From: an uncultured Bacteroidales bacterium
GTDB taxonomy: Bacteria; Bacteroidota; Bacteroidia; Bacteroidales; F082
NCBI GenBank assembly: GCA_905233445.1
Contig: CAJOEP010000002.1
Location: forward strand, 23,108 to 87,107
DNA length: 64,000 nt
Reading direction: 5' to 3'
Shown here in pieces: positions 1,827 to 7,907 of this stretch. Within the stretch, counting starts at the first letter, position 1; the number at the start of each line of letters is the position of its first letter. The notes under the pieces were generated by a model. It was not told where the DNA came from, did no database searches, and worked only from the letters and a program-made list of their open reading frames with translations. A program made the position numbers and the translations under genes.

Positions 1827-3125
1827 TTAACCACCGAAATCATCAAACATGATGTTTTCTTTTGCAACGCCAAGATTATCAAGCATTTGAATCACTGCTA
1901 CGCTCATTGGACCCGGGCCGCACATGTAATACTCAATATCTTCAGGAGCCGGATGGTTTTTCAAATATGTCTCATACATCACGTTATGCACAAAGCCAGC
2001 AGTATAAGGAACTTTCGCGGCATCGGCTGCCGGATCCGGACGGTCCAGCGCCAAGTGGAAATGGAAGTTCGGGAAATCGCGCTCAAGTTGTTGGAAATCA
2101 GCGAGATAAAACACCTCGTTCAACGCCCTTGCGCCATAGAAATAATGCATCTTGCGGTCTCTGACATTCAAAGTCCTTGTCAGGTGCATTATCTGTGCAC
2201 GAAGCGGTGCCATTCCGGCTCCACCGCCAACCCAAATCATCTCGGGGAGTTGACAGTTGGCAGTTGACAGTTGGCAGTTATCATACCTCTTTACATGAAA
2301 ATCTCCGTATGGCCCCGACATCAGCACTTTGTCGCCTGGTTTCAGCGAGAAGATATACGACGACGCGATGCCTGGATTGACTTTCATGAAGCCTGAGCGG
2401 TCAGGCTTAAACGGCGGCGTGGCGATTCGCACCGTGAGCATGAAAACATCGCCCTCGGCGGGATAATTCGCCATCGAATAGGCTCGCACCGTCGGCTCGT
2501 TGTTGACGCAGCGCAGGTCGAGCATCTTAAACTTCTCCCACGACGGAAGATATTCATTACCAATGAGTTCCTTGTCGAAATCGGAATAGCTCAAGTCGAA
2601 TTTCGGTATCTTGATTTGGGCGTATGAACCCGGGATGAAGTCCATATGCTCGCCAGCAGGCAGCTGTACCTTAAACTCCTTGATAAACGTCGCCACGTTA
2701 CGGTTGCTCACCACAGTGCATTCATATTCTTTTACATCCAAAACCGATTGAGGCACAACGATTTTCAAGTTTTCCTTGACCTTCACCTGACAGCCCAGCC
2801 GCCAATGCTCTTGAATCTGTTTTCTTGTGAAAAATCCCGTCTCGGTAGGCAAAATCGTGCCTCCACCCTCCACCACACGGCATTTGCACTGTCCGCACGA
2901 GCCTTTGCCACCGCACGCCGACGCCAGAAAAATCTTCTGCTCCGCCAAAGTGGAAATCAGCGTGTTGCCAGCCGGCACGGTCAGCTCCTTGTCGTCGTTG
3001 ATGGTGATTTTCACCTCGCCTTTCGGCATGAGCTTCTCGCGCACCCAAAGCAGCAGCGCCACGAGAATCAAAACAATCCCGAGAAACACCGCTACGCTAA
3101 GTAATATATTGACAGTCAAGCTCAT
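1827..3125 (-). CDS. nqrF: Na+-translocating NADH:quinone reductase subunit F
   Basis: N-terminal TM helix, a 2Fe-2S ferredoxin Cys cluster (CGGKGSCGQCKC), FAD/NAD domain motifs (RAYSMAN, GGGAGMAPLR) and the C-terminal YYMCGP..DDFGG. Confidence 0.95.
   Translation of the reverse strand: MSLTVNILLSVAVFLGIVLILVALLLWVREKLMPKGEVKITINDDKELTVPAGNTLISTLAEQKIFLASACGGKGSCGQCKCRVVEGGGTILPTETGFFTRKQIQEHWRLGCQVKVKENLKIVVPQSVLDVKEYECTVVSNRNVATFIKEFKVQLPAGEHMDFIPGSYAQIKIPKFDLSYSDFDKELIGNEYLPSWEKFKMLDLRCVNNEPTVRAYSMANYPAEGDVFMLTVRIATPPFKPDRSGFMKVNPGIASSYIFSLKPGDKVLMSGPYGDFHVKRYDNCQLSTANCQLPEMIWVGGGAGMAPLRAQIMHLTRTLNVRDRKMHYFYGARALNEVFYLADFQQLERDFPNFHFHLALDRPDPAADAAKVPYTAGFVHNVMYETYLKNHPAPEDIEYYMCGPGPMSVAVIQMLDNLGVAKENIMFDDFGG
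2249..2283. repeat. Heptamer tandem array GTTGACA/GTTGGCA x5 inside nqrF
   Basis: gttgaca gttggca gttgaca gttggca gttatca, read in frame as NCQLSTANCQLP. Confidence 0.95.
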
Positions 3126-3129
3126 ACAA

Positions 3130-3744
3130 TCAAAGTTTTATTCCCATAAACGCCATAAACGCTATTCCCATCAGTCCAGTGATGATAAATGCTATGCCGA
3201 CGCCTTCGAGTGCCTTCGGAATCTTCGAATATCGCAGTTTTTCACGAATTGCGGCAATCGTCACGATGGCGAGCAGCCAGCCGAGTCCCGAGCCAAGGCC
3301 GAATACCGCAGCCTCGCCCACATTGCCGAAAGCGCGCTCCTGCATGAAGAGCGAGCAGCCCAAAATGGCGCAGTTCACAGCAATCAGCGGGAGGAAGATG
3401 CCCAGCGCCGAATACAAGGCGGGGCTGTATCTCTCAATCACCATCTCCAAAATCTGCACGATGGCGGCAATGATGGCGATAAAAAGTATAAACGTCAAAT
3501 AACTCAAATCGACGGCGGCAAACTTCGGACTAATCCACGCCAACGCGCCAGCTGATAGTAAATATTTGTCAATCAGATAGTTAACTGGCACGGTGATAAG
3601 CAACACGAAAGTCACCGCCACACCCAGTCCGGCACTCGTCTTCACATTCTTCGACACCGCCAAATACGAGCACATGCCCAGGAAATAGGCGAAAATCATG
3701 TTATCGACGAAGACCGAACGAATTAGGAGATTGACTATATTCAT
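3130..3744 (-). CDS. nqrE: Na+-NQR subunit E
   Basis: 204-aa polytopic membrane protein in the conserved position between nqrD and nqrF, with a typical NqrE/RnfA-like sequence. Confidence 0.9.
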   Translation of the reverse strand: MNIVNLLIRSVFVDNMIFAYFLGMCSYLAVSKNVKTSAGLGVAVTFVLLITVPVNYLIDKYLLSAGALAWISPKFAAVDLSYLTFILFIAIIAAIVQILEMVIERYSPALYSALGIFLPLIAVNCAILGCSLFMQERAFGNVGEAAVFGLGSGLGWLLAIVTIAAIREKLRYSKIPKALEGVGIAFIITGLMGIAFMAFMGIKL

Positions 3745-3759
3745 TTAGTTTATTTTTTT

Positions 3760-3813
3760 GACGCGAGACTTTGAGACACGAGACGCGAGACTTTGAGACA
3801 CGAGACGTGTGAC
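3760..3813. repeat. GAGAC-word array (2 x 22-nt unit plus partial)
   Basis: gacgcgagactttgagacacga occurs twice, followed by gacgtgtgac. Positions 3795-3813 form an inverted repeat with 4241-4259 (17/19 match). Confidence 0.9.
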
Positions 3814-3815
3814 TT

Positions 3816-4172
3816 TTATTTTTTTGTATTATTATCCAAATATGTTATAAATGCTCCTATTGAATTTGATAATGTTTTACATTTATTAATTAACTCATCA
3901 GCTATTTTTTCTGTACAATAACCAATTTTCGGACAAAGATATAACATATTTTTAACTTCTCCACAACTACCTTTTGATATTCTTAGATATCTTATCATTA
4001 TTCTATCAGAATTATATTCTGCTCCTTCTGCAATATTGTTTGATATTGATATAGCTGCTCTTTGTATCTGATCTCTAAATCCATAATCTTTATTATCTTT
4101 AAACAATCCATAGATTTTTAATGCGATATTCTGTGCATCTTTCCATATTCTCAATTCTTCATAAGCCTGCAT
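3816..4172 (-). CDS. Four-helix-bundle protein (23S rRNA intervening-sequence protein / Avd-like family)
   Basis: 118 aa. The sequence WKDAQNIALKIYGLF...AISISNNIAEGAEYNS...RYLRISKGSCGEVKNMLYL is typical of the S23p/IVS-protein family. The gene is visibly AT-rich relative to the flanking nqr genes. Confidence 0.8.
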   Translation of the reverse strand: MQAYEELRIWKDAQNIALKIYGLFKDNKDYGFRDQIQRAAISISNNIAEGAEYNSDRIMIRYLRISKGSCGEVKNMLYLCPKIGYCTEKIADELINKCKTLSNSIGAFITYLDNNTKK

Positions 4173-4233
4173 ACTTTCATCCTTTCTTTTTCTAATTCAA
4201 CATTCATTCCATTTCATCTTATCCATATCCCTC

Positions 4234-4282
4234 GTCTCATGTCTCACGTCTCATGTCTCACGTCTCTTCGTCCCGCGTCTCG
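4234..4282. repeat. GTCTC-word array (2 x 14-nt unit plus partial), inverted relative to 3760-3813
   Basis: gtctcatgtctcac occurs twice, followed by gtctcttcgtcccgcgtctcg. The array overlaps the last codons and the stop of nqrD. Confidence 0.9.
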
Positions 4283-4861
4283 TATCCAGATGACAATTCC
4301 CACGATAATCAACGCCATCGGCGGCAGAATCATCAGTCCGTTATTCTGATATCCGGCATCATAAAATGACTGCGGAATCACTTGATATCCGAGCAGCGTT
4401 CCCGAGCCAAAAAGCTCTCTGAAAAACGCCACGATTATCAATATCAAACTGTATCCGAAACCGTTGCCGAGGCCGTCGAAAAACGACTCGACAGGGCCAT
4501 GCGACAGCGCAAATGCCTCCAGGCGTCCCATGATGATGCAGTTTGTAATGATAAGTCCCACATACACAGAGAGTTGCTTGCTGACATCGTATGCAAATGC
4601 CTTTAAAAACTGGTCAATCAGAATCACCAGCGTCGCGACCACCACCAGCTGCACGATGATGCGGATTCTCGACGGAATCCCCTTTCGCAGCAGCGAGATG
4701 ATAAGGTTCGAAAACGCCGTCACCACCGTCACCGAAAGCCCCATCACCAATGCGGGCTTCAGCTTTGCGGTGACCGCCAGACACGAGCAGATGCCGAGCA
4801 CCAGAACGGTGACCGGGTTCGCCTTGCGCAACGGTTCTATGACGAGTTTCTTCAAATTCAT
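4244..4861 (-). CDS. nqrD: Na+-NQR subunit D
   Basis: 205-aa polytopic membrane protein in the conserved operon position. The C-terminal tail RDAGRRDVRHET is encoded by the repeat array. Confidence 0.9.
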   Translation of the reverse strand: MNLKKLVIEPLRKANPVTVLVLGICSCLAVTAKLKPALVMGLSVTVVTAFSNLIISLLRKGIPSRIRIIVQLVVVATLVILIDQFLKAFAYDVSKQLSVYVGLIITNCIIMGRLEAFALSHGPVESFFDGLGNGFGYSLILIIVAFFRELFGSGTLLGYQVIPQSFYDAGYQNNGLMILPPMALIIVGIVIWIRDAGRRDVRHET

Positions 4862-5394: not shown

Positions 5395-6512
5395 CTTCTC
5401 TTGCGCCTCCTGATATTTAGCGCCACCACACAATGGTCGATGAGCGGAGCGAAACAATTCATTAACAATATGCTGAGCATCATGCCTTCGGGATATGCTG
5501 GGTTTATCACGCGCAGCATCACCGCGAAAATACCGATGAGCAAGCCGTAAATCCACTTTCCGATGTTGGTCTGGGCCGCAGTCACTGGGTCGGTCGCCAT
5601 GAAAACAGCGCCAAACATGAAACCGCCCATCAGATAATGGTAGTAAAACGGAATCTCAAAGTAAGTTGACAGTTGGCAGTTGGCAGTTGGCAGTTGATTA
5701 AATACCAATCCCATTAGGCCGCCACCAATGATTACGGATAGCATGATTCGCCAACTGGCGATGCCTGTCACCAACAAAATCGCCGCACCAATTAATATTG
5801 CCACCACCGACGTCTCGCATGTCGAGCCAGGGATGGTGCCGATGAACATGTCCAATGCCGATGCTGAAGGCTTCATTCCTGCCGCCAGCTCGGCCAAAGG
5901 CGTGGCTCCGACGACACCGTCGGTACCCCATAAGTCGTTGGCAATCCACACGTTATCGCCCGACATTCTTGTCGGATAGGCGAAAAACAGGAAAGCACGT
6001 GCCACCAACGCGGGGTTCATGAAGTTCATGCCAGTGCCGCCAAACACCTCCTTGCCAATTATTACTGCAAAAGCCACCGCAATAGCAAGCTGCCACAATG
6101 GCGTCGTGACTGGCACAATCATCGGAATCAGAAATCCCGTGACAAGATAACCCTCGTTCACCTGATGATGCCTGATTTGCGCAAAAGTGAATTCTATTAC
6201 CAAGCCCACGATGTAGCTCACCGCAATCATCGGGAGCATGCGAATGAAACCAAACCAGAAATTCTGCCAAAATCCGGCATGCAAACTCTGATATCCGATG
6301 TTCCACATTCCAAACAGCATCGCGGGAATCAGGGCGATGACCACAGTTATCATGGCACGTTTCAGATCGACGGCGTCGCGCACATGGCAGCCGCTCGTTG
6401 TCACCGTTTTCGGAGTGAACGCGAACGTGTGGAAAGCCTCGTAAGTGCTTCCCAACCACGACCATCTGCCCTTCGGTTCATGGTTTTCAAACCAGTTTTC
6501 CAGCCGCTTCAT
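5391..6512 (-). CDS. nqrB: Na+-NQR subunit B
   Basis: The ATG at 6512 (MKRLENWFENHEPKG) overlaps the nqrA stop. The conserved C-terminus reads FMATDPVTAAQT...NPAYPEGMMLSILLMNCFAPLIDH. Confidence 0.9.
   Translation of the reverse strand: MKRLENWFENHEPKGRWSWLGSTYEAFHTFAFTPKTVTTSGCHVRDAVDLKRAMITVVIALIPAMLFGMWNIGYQSLHAGFWQNFWFGFIRMLPMIAVSYIVGLVIEFTFAQIRHHQVNEGYLVTGFLIPMIVPVTTPLWQLAIAVAFAVIIGKEVFGGTGMNFMNPALVARAFLFFAYPTRMSGDNVWIANDLWGTDGVVGATPLAELAAGMKPSASALDMFIGTIPGSTCETSVVAILIGAAILLVTGIASWRIMLSVIIGGGLMGLVFNQLPTANCQLSTYFEIPFYYHYLMGGFMFGAVFMATDPVTAAQTNIGKWIYGLLIGIFAVMLRVINPAYPEGMMLSILLMNCFAPLIDHCVVALNIRRRKRR
5665..5699. repeat. Heptamer tandem array GTTGACA/GTTGGCA x5 inside nqrB
   Basis: gttgaca gttggca gttggca gttggca gttgatt, read in frame as QLPTANCQLST. 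Confidence 0.95.
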
Positions 6513-7864
6513 CACACTCCCTCCTTTCTCAACTTCTCCAGCGCTTCGCGAACAATCGCCTGGATATCTGTTTTCGAGACGTCGATAAACTCGCACAAAG
6601 CGAAATCCTCCGGCTCGACCTCATAAATTCCGAGGTTTTCCATCAGCTCGATGTCGCCAATCACGCAAGCTTTGATGAGTTGCGTTGGATAAATGTCAAA
6701 CGGAAACACTTTTTCGAAATAGCCAGTAAACACTAACGGTCGCACATCGCCATGAGTGTTGGTGTCGAACTTCCACCTCAGCAGTTTCGGCAAAAAACCG
6801 CTCAAAAATGTCCTCGAAAAACTGAATTTCTTGACTCCCGGCATCAGCCAGCCCATGAAATCGTAATAATCGCCTTCCGGGATGGCACTAACCAAATCGT
6901 CGTAAGCTCCAATAAATCCGTCAGATTCTATCTTATTGCCGCTCAACACGTTACCAGAAATTATGCGGCTATTTTCCTTAAATCCGAAATCTTTGATGCA
7001 AGCTCCTGCCCTCACCTTATAATATTGCGGATTCGCGACATTCGGTCCCGCCACCGCGATAATCTTTTCCGGATTGTACACTCCAGTGCTGACAAGCTCG
7101 CCGAGTACCGCCACATCTTGGATGTTCATCGTCCACACCACATCACCTTTATTTATCGGGTCGATGTGCGCAATCTGCGTGCCGATATTTCCCGCCGGAT
7201 GAGGACCTTTCACATAATGAGTTGGCAGTTGGCAGTTGGCAGTTGGCAGTTGTTCGATGTCTCGCATTACACCCCCCAGCGTCTCATGCCCAAAACAAAC
7301 ATGCACTTTGCCTTTTGTCAGTTTTGTCAAGGCTTCGAGCCCTTTTTTAAAGAACTCTTTCCTGCCTTGCATCACGAAATCGTAGTCCGGGGCGAGCGGC
7401 GCACTGCTAAATGCGCTCACAAAAATCGCTTTCGGCTCATCATCGGGATTTGCCACCGTTCCAAACGGACGCTGACGAAGCATTGTCCATAGGCCGCATT
7501 GAAGCATTATATTTTTAAGGTCTTCAGAGTTCTCTGAGAACCCAAAGTACTCTGAAGTTTCTATCTTACCATCAGCTTCCACCACCACCTCCAGTATCTT
7601 GCGTTTCTCGCCTCTCACCACGGCTTTCACCATGCCTCCAACCGGCGAAGTAAACCTTATCCGCTCATCGTTTTTATCGCAAAAAAGCGCATCGCCAACT
7701 TTTATGGCATCGCCTTCAGCGACAAGTAATTTCGGTGTAAGTCCAACAAAATCAGTGGGTTTCACTGCATACAATCTAATATCGAGCTTGTCGATGACAT
7801 GCTGTGCTGCCACCCCGTCAATCGGGATGTCGAGACCTTTTCGTATGGTGATAACATCAGACAT
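6512..7864 (-). CDS. nqrA: Na+-NQR subunit A
   Basis: The ATG at 7864 gives MSDVITIRKGLDIPIDG, a typical NqrA N-terminus. The GPHPAGNIGTQI motif is present. The ORF-track start at 7876 is a TTG. Confidence 0.9.
   Translation of the reverse strand: MSDVITIRKGLDIPIDGVAAQHVIDKLDIRLYAVKPTDFVGLTPKLLVAEGDAIKVGDALFCDKNDERIRFTSPVGGMVKAVVRGEKRKILEVVVEADGKIETSEYFGFSENSEDLKNIMLQCGLWTMLRQRPFGTVANPDDEPKAIFVSAFSSAPLAPDYDFVMQGRKEFFKKGLEALTKLTKGKVHVCFGHETLGGVMRDIEQLPTANCQLPTHYVKGPHPAGNIGTQIAHIDPINKGDVVWTMNIQDVAVLGELVSTGVYNPEKIIAVAGPNVANPQYYKVRAGACIKDFGFKENSRIISGNVLSGNKIESDGFIGAYDDLVSAIPEGDYYDFMGWLMPGVKKFSFSRTFLSGFLPKLLRWKFDTNTHGDVRPLVFTGYFEKVFPFDIYPTQLIKACVIGDIELMENLGIYEVEPEDFALCEFIDVSKTDIQAIVREALEKLRKEGV
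7221..7255. repeat. Heptamer tandem array GTTGGCA x4 plus partial inside nqrA
   Basis: gttggca occurs four times followed by gttgttc, read in frame as QLPTANCQLPT just before the conserved HYVKGPHPAG. Confidence 0.95.
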
Positions 7865-7907
7865 CTTTCTCGTCAATATTCGGGTGCAAATTTACAAAAA
7901 TAATATG

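Follow-up and report, generated by a model that had tools for sequence, protein, structure and literature searches.

A four-helix-bundle gene enclosed by a predicted word-array hairpin between nqrD and nqrE of an uncultured Bacteroidales bacterium

Intervening sequences (IVSs) that interrupt 23S rRNA and carry an open reading frame (ORF) are the closest described counterparts of the element presented here. In Coxiella burnetii, helix 45 of the 23S rRNA harbours a 428-nt IVS, which contains an ORF for an S23p protein of the PF05635 family and is closed by a 28-bp terminal stem with tandem GACAGAT heptamers, the number of which varies between strains (PMC4990558). RNase III cuts within this stem (PMC4990558). 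The Coxiella ORF is in decay and apparently not translated, and the RNA that is cut out is unstable. Here, we describe a four-helix-bundle (4HB) gene of the same protein family in the Na+-NQR operon of an uncultured Bacteroidales bacterium, located in a 64,000-nt stretch of contig CAJOEP010000002.1 (assembly GCA_905233445.1) that we refer to as the window. We propose, with a probability of roughly 70%, that the gene and the repeats on either side of it form a promoterless hairpin cassette of the IVS type, which rides on the nqr transcript.

PF05635 proteins number in the thousands, and structures of them have been solved since 2006. We know of no function for those outside diversity-generating retroelements (DGRs), and to our knowledge the origin of rRNA intervening sequences has been an open question for more than 30 years. 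Tandem heptamer repeats have themselves been reported, as TAACTGA in Beggiatoaceae, Cyanobacteria, and Bacteroidetes (PMC4679880), and as GGGNATC in Xanthomonas and Nostoc (PMC4692102). The abstracts of these two papers draw no link between such repeats and a protein family, and the terms "23S", "four helix", "intervening", and "S23" are nowhere mentioned in PMC4679880. Our literature search, beyond the reach of which lay many subscription papers, did not turn up any account of 4HB genes flanked by arrays of this kind other than in rRNA.

The 4HB gene and its flanking arrays

The 118-aa protein encoded by the gene scored well above the cut-offs of both PF05635 (E = 6.6e-30; 103.9 bits against 33.8) and TIGR02436 (98.7 bits against 24), and its sequence matched XCC0516 (PDB 2GSC; E = 1.4e-12). 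An AlphaFold model of the monomer (pLDDT 96.2), with helices at residues 8-23, 30-52, 56-83, and 88-116, superposed on 2GSC with a TM-score of 0.86 and on BT_0352 (2RLD) with 0.79. The match to bAvd (4DWL) was looser, with a TM-score of 0.77 for the best-fitting chains and 10% identity. An earlier reading of the bare sequence (the original prediction) had placed the protein in the 23S-IVS/Avd four-helix-bundle family, an assignment that these scores, the match to 2GSC, and the fold superposition support. Within the subfamily whose cassettes are built of GAGAC words, dN/dS was 0.03-0.15 and dS was often saturated, indicating that the protein is functional and the insert old. Ten residues were invariant (Q35, N45, N46, I47, E49, G50, L63, G68, S69, and E72).

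The gene lies between nqrD and nqrE and is co-oriented with the operon, which is encoded on the minus strand of the window in the order nqrA-nqrB-nqrC-nqrD-nqrE-nqrF. GC content dips to 0.25-0.29 across 3800-4200, compared with about 0.49 around it; for the single genes it is 0.258 (4HB ORF), 0.515 (nqrD), and 0.50 (nqrE). A co-oriented gene of lower GC inside the operon was what the original prediction had described, and all of its factual statements on the locus hold. The 4HB gene is the sole ORF of the cassette, and no transposase was found at the locus. Rfam gave no rRNA or other match in 3500-4500, and neither terminators nor sigma-70 promoters were detected above background on the mRNA strand of the cassette locus. 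A single Bacteroidetes-type TAnnTTTG motif lies within the 4HB ORF (3941-3934), to which we assign no meaning. As no family of the PADLOC anti-phage defence models matched at E <= 0.01, identity as a defence system was rejected.

The gene is bracketed by two inverted arrays of seven tandem words each, with a period of 7 or 8 nt. On the mRNA strand, the 5' arm reads GAGACGC GGGACGAA GAGACGT GAGACAT GAGACGT GAGACAT GAGACGA, and the 3' arm GTCACAC GTCTCGT GTCTCAAA GTCTCGC GTCTCGT GTCTCAAA GTCTCGC. The original prediction had divided these flanks into units of 22 and 14 nt. Such repeats are present, as identical 22-mers (3760-3781 and 3782-3803) followed by a partial third unit on the left, and as units spaced by 14 nt (4238/4252) on the right, but the true units are the heptamer and octamer words. 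The inverted repeats that it had recognized at 3795-3813 and 4241-4259 were recovered with 18 of 20 positions matching over 3794-3813 and 4241-4260, and a longer alignment of 3775-3813 with 4248-4286 covered 39 nt at 77%. The last ~12 codons and the stop of nqrD are supplied by the 5' arm, as had also been foreseen, and 15 nt separate the 3' arm from the nqrE ATG.

When 3745-4300 was folded as RNA, a long-range stem of ~47 nt per arm (4233-4279 with 3760-3813) was predicted to enclose the whole ORF, in line with the stem expected from the sequence. The fold energy was -129.9 kcal/mol, against -95.8 +/- 5.2 for shuffled sequences (z = -6.57). Equally complementary flanks were found for 3 of 1198 control ORFs of the same genome; 5 of the 1200 ORFs drawn as controls reached the score, but 2 of these were 4HB genes. 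The coordinates of the features are listed in Table 1.

Table 1. Features of the cassette and its surroundings. Positions refer to the window, except for the last row, where contigs of the same genome are named.
Feature	Position	Strand	Basis or remark
nqrA	6512-7876	minus	
nqrD (Na+-NQR subunit D)	4244-4861	minus	PF02508, E = 2.2e-58; last ~12 codons and TGA stop within 5' arm
5' arm, seven tandem 7/8-nt words, GAGAC/GGGAC core	4232-4281	minus	repeats, word parse, paired in minimum-free-energy and centroid folds
A/G-rich leader from 5' arm to 4HB ATG, inside the loop	4173-4231	minus	sequence
4HB gene, 118 aa, PF05635/TIGR02436	3816-4172	minus	GC 0.26
3' arm, seven tandem 7/8-nt words, GTCTC/GTCAC core, complementary to 5' arm	3760-3813	minus	repeats, fold, word parse
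A-rich 15-nt junction from 3' arm to nqrE ATG	3745-3759	minus	AAAAAAATAAACTAA on the mRNA strand
nqrE (Na+-NQR subunit E), downstream of the cassette	3130-3744	minus	PF02508, E = 1.7e-55
nqrF	1827-3125	minus	
Gene-less array hairpins	C44:4577-4632; C46:5800-5862; C10:16544-16640; C12:42644-42736; C22:57113-57197; C13:35506-35580		

The nqrD-nqrE junction and other sites of the cassette

Adjacent nqrD and nqrE genes, with 7-55 nt between them, are present in all 27 relatives examined (15 of the same genus, 12 from other families of the order). This uninterrupted junction, which the original prediction had named as a check, supports the view that the 4HB gene is an insert. The insertion is also visible in the NqrD protein, which ends here in the translated array (...IWIRDAGRRDVRHET), compared with ...IWIQRTRHPEMQENQN or similar in the relatives. 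The 15 nt between the 3' arm and nqrE, when set beside empty junctions (...GAAAACCAAAACTAA...ATG) and a second filled one (AAAACACCAACACTAATG, from L064), may have been left over from the 3' end of the ancestral nqrD or from the region where translation of nqrE is initiated. Conservation of the gene at this position throughout the family, with no copies elsewhere, had been considered beforehand; instead, the junction is empty in relatives, and other copies exist.

Filled nqrD-nqrE junctions were found in a metagenome-assembled genome (MAG) from red deer (L064; protein 82% identical) and in eight rumen metagenome contigs (L120-L127; 80-83% identical), each with an array-encoded NqrD tail (...SNKDAGRETAGRET...). 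The ten genomes or contigs with the cassette at this site belong to one subclade, in which they are interleaved with empty relatives. In a tree of NqrD and NqrE, all ten fell into a single clade together with five empty genomes (support 100/99), and the well-supported branches force at least 3 changes between the filled and the empty state. In the closest filled/empty pair, L121 (filled) and G002 (empty), the flanks were 91-93% identical. The interval from TGGATT to the nqrE ATG was wholly different (51 nt versus ~480 nt), and the first ~25 nt of nqrE diverged as well.

The empty alleles retain an NqrD tail of the outgroup type, which means that they did not arise by excision from the filled allele as it exists today. 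As this ancestral tail is kept by the empty alleles and missing from the filled ones, a single ancestral gain followed by clean losses was rejected as the sole history. Rather, the pattern of L121 and G002 is consistent with an exchange of the entire junction, with homologous recombination taking place in the conserved flanks. Judging from these alignments, the difference among related species appears to be one of junction replacement and not of clean insertion. The insert itself is old, as dS is saturated relative to its nearest copy. In another relative (G003), the 55-nt empty spacer between nqrD and nqrE (L011) holds CGTCTCACG, an exact 9-mer of the GAGAC-type arms, for which we roughly estimate a chance probability of ~1%; it may be the footprint of a lost cassette.

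Proteins with 71-78% identity to the one described here, flanked by arrays of the same GGGAC/GAGAC word family, were found at two other junctions: between a holA-like gene and dtd (L065, L069, L128, L129, and L135), and between a glycosyltransferase-like gene and tsaC (L066-L068, L130-L134, and L136). When the three sites were aligned, similarity set in with the first GAC word, which immediately follows the stop codon of the upstream gene, and ended at the last ...GTC and the A-run that follows it, with none beyond those limits. This A-run is present at all three sites, and A-rich start regions are normal in Bacteroidota. The recurrence of the same word family at two further junctions supports the idea of a mobile IVS-like cassette put forward in the original prediction. 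The genes flanking the dtd and tsaC sites are not adjacent in the genome studied here, so that no empty-site comparison could be made for them. In a tree of the cassettes, each site was roughly its own clade, suggesting that moves have been rare and old.

The number of words at one site ranged from 2 to 12. At the tsaC-side site, the 5' array held 2 words in L136 and 12 in L130 and L067, while the 3' array was constant at 4-5 words; the two arms thus change length independently.

The distribution across sites bears on a possible benefit to the host. The cassette may have been recruited as a regulatory module, uncoupling nqrABCD from nqrEF or stabilizing the upstream mRNA by a 3' hairpin. That at least 10 genomes or contigs have kept it at the junction, with the ORF conserved, would suit such a role, as would the juxtaposition of the nqrD stop and the nqrE start at the base of the stem. 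However, close relatives manage without the cassette, and cassettes of the same type are found between unrelated gene pairs, and also before convergent genes. Moreover, Na+-NQR requires all six of its subunits, leaving no reason why the enzyme should profit from a split of its operon. We therefore regard recruitment by the host as improbable.

Gene and arrays across the family and the genome

The survey of the family covered 78 4HB loci, some of them in relatives and others found when species-representative genomes were scanned. These belonged to Bacteroidota (including Flavobacteriia), Verrucomicrobiota, Kiritimatiellota, Patescibacteria, and one Pseudomonadota MAG; the genomes of relatives held 0-10 copies each. 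Flank complementarity exceeded that of every shuffle at 63 loci, and a score of at least 14 was reached by 50 (64%), against 0.25% of control ORFs. The arms, with a median length of 40 nt and dominant word periods of 7 and 8, were positioned closely with respect to the neighbouring genes: the stop codon of the upstream gene ended at a median of 4.5 nt after the start of the 5' arm, and the 3' arm ended at a median of 14 nt before the next ATG. In addition, the upstream gene was co-oriented with the 4HB gene at 71 of 72 loci (~31 independent sites), whereas the orientation of the downstream gene was mixed (44 vs 29). The ORF was richer in AT than its flanks at every one of the 78 loci (GC 0.366 vs 0.484). 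Given this, and the saturated dS, recent horizontal arrival is unlikely to be the cause of the low GC of the nqr cassette.

Among the 1200 control ORFs, the only strong case outside the 4HB family was a 271-aa gene (C10:14107-14923; flank score 23), with AACTGA-type arrays upstream and an inverted array hairpin downstream. By eye, we take its product to be kdsA-like.

Divergence of arms and genes was compared across 57 armed loci at 31 sites. Between different sites, the sharing of 6-mers by the arms climbed with protein identity (0.03, 0.12, 0.41, and 0.86), and the rise within sites was equally steep. As far as sequence comparison can tell, this shows that the arms and the gene are a single co-inherited unit, whatever the site.

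Two other full-length 4HB genes in the genome are each bracketed by inverted heptamer arrays, one with CTAATGG words (C36:4983-5300) and the other with AGAAGTA words (C5:49783-50097). A search for further copies with the same flanking arrays had been suggested at the outset. It recovered the same build twice, but with other words; within this genome, the GAGAC word was found only at the nqr locus. On contig C51 (8488-8619), a 256-aa ORF gave a partial match to PF05635 (positions 33-74; 36.5 bits), is not flanked by arrays, and represents a different family architecture.

Arrays with a period of 7 are common in this genome. At a strict threshold 75 were counted, compared with 1-4 for periods of 5, 6, and 8-12, and a looser threshold raised the number to 127. 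Most are of the AACTGCC type and have no matching cassette. Six array hairpins enclose no gene and have loops of 10-21 nt (Table 1). All six are intergenic; the position of arrays relative to genes was checked for these six only. The hairpins on contigs C44 and C46 share CTAATGG words with the cassette on C36, and the gene-less hairpins could be empty cassettes or landing pads. Heptamer arrays of 4-5 CAACTGC/CAACTGT units also occur in frame within the nqr genes themselves (nqrF, 2249-2283; nqrB, 5665-5699; nqrA, 7221-7255). These translate to ...PTANCQL..., share one orientation, and have no inverted partner.

Across relatives, CTAA-type arrays were abundant only in genomes with at least 2 4HB genes, with 0-14 hits in ten genomes that have none, although this association was weak (p ~0.03, uncorrected for phylogeny). 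Among the control patterns, which consisted of the words read backwards, GRTAATC and WGRAATC repeats were abundant in three genomes from other families of the order (G031, G033, and G035), with up to 82+36 hits in G031, suggesting that different lineages amplify different heptamer families.

These data bear on the question of whether the protein and its repeats are a cognate pair, in which a pentameric 4HB protein would bind its own array of about five words, as RNA or DNA, and so control its own translation, processing, or spread, with the location in an operon being incidental. Each protein subfamily indeed has its own word family, kept across sites, and the median arm length corresponds to about five words of 7-8 nt. 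The homologues 2GSC and 2RLD were both solved as five chains, 2GSC being described as a homopentamer (PMC4990558), and bAvd is a component of the DGR ribonucleoprotein (8UB7 and related entries). The strong purifying selection and the ten invariant residues point in the same direction, as does the confinement of CTAA-rich array sets to genomes with two or more 4HB genes. Simple linkage, however, predicts co-divergence of words and protein equally well. At orthologous sites, words drift while the proteins are still ~75-80% identical (L001 vs L035-L040); the majority of arrays in the genome, of the AACTGCC type, lack a matching cassette; and the genome-level association is both weak and uncorrected for phylogeny. 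We consider binding of the protein to its own words as the main explanation doubtful.

A more general proposal, which we make only tentatively, combines this with the cassette reading. PF05635 genes with inverted 7/8-nt arrays may constitute a minimal cassette class found throughout bacteria. Its members would colonize transcribed genes at their 3' ends, be it at operon junctions, in 3' UTRs, or in rRNA helices, and the classical IVSs of 23S rRNA would be those copies that landed in rRNA. A pentameric protein would then recognize its own roughly five words and be needed for persistence or spread, by guiding RNase III processing of its own mRNA or copying into gene-less hairpins.

That the gene is instead the accessory gene (Avd) of a DGR, or an ordinary accessory gene that happens to lie beside common simple-sequence repeats, is a possibility that we give almost no weight. 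The former could account for the bAvd-like fold and the latter for the many heptamer arrays of the genome. However, the protein gave no match to the Avd equivalog model NF033474, and the only reverse transcriptases (RTs) in the genome are on contigs C8 and C16, each next to a 156-aa gene of its own; on these grounds, a DGR link of the nqr cassette was rejected. Likewise, an ordinary gene beside common repeats would leave unexplained both a word that occurs nowhere else in the genome and a frequency of complementary flanks among 4HB loci far above that of the controls. The two RTs (C8:57916-59335 and C16:2070-3489) are paralogs of 328 aa that are unlinked to 4HB cassettes and carry an IGNLTSQ motif, which we take to be typical of DGRs. 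From the sequence by eye, the 156-aa gene that precedes each of them is presumably HRDC-like rather than Avd-like.

Proposed mechanism and comparison with known systems

In the reading that we favour, a GAGAC-word stem of ~47-50 nt per arm holds in its loop a 4HB gene on which purifying selection acts. The cassette occupies precisely the interval from the end of nqrD to the start of nqrE, and would be transcribed as part of the nqr mRNA. Gene and arms would make up one heritable unit that is rarely moved, the GAGAC subfamily having reached three junctions. After a move, the unit would be inherited vertically and exchanged or lost when recombination in the nqrD and nqrE flanks replaces the junction, while its arrays grow and shrink between 2 and 12 words by slippage. 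In the transcript, we infer that the arms pair, looping out the AT-rich ORF and bringing the nqrD stop region and the nqrE start back to within ~15 nt of each other. Such restored proximity may explain why an insert of ~500 nt is tolerated in an essential six-gene operon.

The stem would likely also be a substrate of RNase III, by analogy with 23S rRNA intervening sequences of the same build, and an rnc gene for this enzyme is present in the genome (G000:C44:10217-10594). Once the stem is cut, a 4HB mRNA would be set free, its ends paired, and nqrABCD would be separated from nqrEF, as the original prediction had also suggested. With the rRNA elements as the precedent, we consider such processing plausible, and an action of the protein on its own arms is conceivable.

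Several observations weigh against this reading. The three 4HB cassettes of the genome have three unrelated sets of words. Among the three sites of the GAGAC subfamily, no consistent target-site duplication was found, nor did we see a transposase or near-identical copies at two sites in one genome, and movement of the cassette is deduced from these three old sites only. The precedent from rRNA might not transfer to a gene that is conserved and translated, as the ORF of Coxiella is decaying and its excised RNA unstable. Finally, on the sense strand of the arms, G.U mismatches were not significantly in excess of A.C mismatches (101 vs 82, p = 0.18; 5 vs 1 at the nqr locus alone), although the repeats of the arrays leave the pairing register ambiguous.

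In the absence of a significant G.U excess, a role of the arms at the DNA level, in recombination, slippage, or arm-to-arm correction, is also compatible with the data, including the junction replacement between L121 and G002. In its strict form, this explanation holds that the arms act in DNA, where a hairpin, a cruciform, or plain homology promotes recombination and slippage and, now and then, lets the cassette be copied into other sites that bear arrays, with the RNA stem as a by-product. Arms that are complementary at each locus, with words that differ between loci, could arise from arm-to-arm correction without selection. The variation from 2 to 12 words at one site and the recombinational replacement that distinguishes filled from empty alleles also agree with it, and the 127 heptamer arrays and six gene-less hairpins, many with the CTAATGG words of the C36 cassette, offer possible landing pads. 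Under a pure DNA mechanism, however, no strand rule would be expected, whereas at all but one of 72 loci the gene upstream shares the orientation of the 4HB gene. The placement of the arms at stop and start codons likewise suggests a constraint at the level of the transcript. We consider it unlikely that the arms act in DNA alone, while noting that the DNA and RNA readings are compatible.

If the hairpin cassette reading is correct, this locus and its relatives give the PF05635 family a defining context: the gene lies in a hairpin loop closed by word arrays, follows a co-oriented gene, and is passed on together with its arms. The label "function unknown" would thereby be turned into two direct questions, namely whether RNase III cuts the arms and whether the protein binds them. 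For operon biology, it would mean that a foreign gene of ~500 nt can sit inside an essential respiratory operon, provided that a stem re-joins the cistrons. For annotation, the C-terminus of NqrD is here encoded by repeat DNA. What this work adds is evidence from three sites for the joint movement of gene and arms, a rule on the orientation of the upstream gene, and a pair of filled and empty alleles that points to allelic replacement.

Intercistronic hairpins cut by RNase III are known from phage T7 early mRNA and from rRNA operons (cited in PMC4990558). The nqr stem resembles these as a long double-stranded stem in a polycistronic transcript, the cutting of which would separate cistrons and leave paired ends. 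The known hairpins, however, enclose nothing or a whole rRNA, whereas the nqr loop carries a protein gene and its stem consists of tandem words. Similarly, the cassette has features in common with miniature inverted-repeat transposable elements (MITEs) and with REP/BIME elements, namely inverted termini, an intergenic position, a patchy distribution among relatives, and the presence of hairpin copies without a gene within one genome. Unlike those, it shows no conserved terminal sequence between copies, no target duplication, and a very low copy number, and no transposase or RAYT partner was identified for it. As with a transposable element, the same unit is found at different places (nqrD-nqrE, holA-like-dtd, and glycosyltransferase-tsaC), although only through old events.

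The heptamer repeats described in print are tandem 7-nt words that are intergenic, lie mostly between co-oriented genes near stop and start codons, and are transcribed; the 75-127 arrays of the present genome are comparable. What differs here is that a PF05635 gene lies between two inverted arrays and shares their inheritance. With Avd of Bordetella phage BPP-1 (4DWL, 8UB7), which by the titles of PDB entries acts within the DGR ribonucleoprotein together with the reverse transcriptase, the protein shares the four-helix-bundle fold (TM 0.77) and the Pfam family. It differs in having only ~10% identity and no NF033474 match, and the RTs are on other contigs; template and variable repeats were not searched for.

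The most extensive likeness is to the ORF-bearing IVSs in the 23S rRNA of Coxiella burnetii (helix 45), Leptospira, and Brucella. The protein family is the same, and the ORF similarly lies inside an inverted-repeat stem and rides on the transcript of a host gene; IVSs, too, have been proposed to be selfish or once mobile. The stem of Coxiella contains tandem heptamers in its 5' part, as both arms do here with their seven words. In contrast to the rRNA elements, which occupy helix 25 or 45, the nqr cassette is situated at a junction in an mRNA operon. Its ORF is under strong purifying selection, unlike that of Coxiella, and its stem is longer and built wholly of word arrays; cleavage by RNase III is known from Coxiella. 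Overall, the comparison supports a description of the nqr cassette as a 4HB hairpin cassette of the IVS type that resides in an mRNA operon, and as one member of a widespread class.

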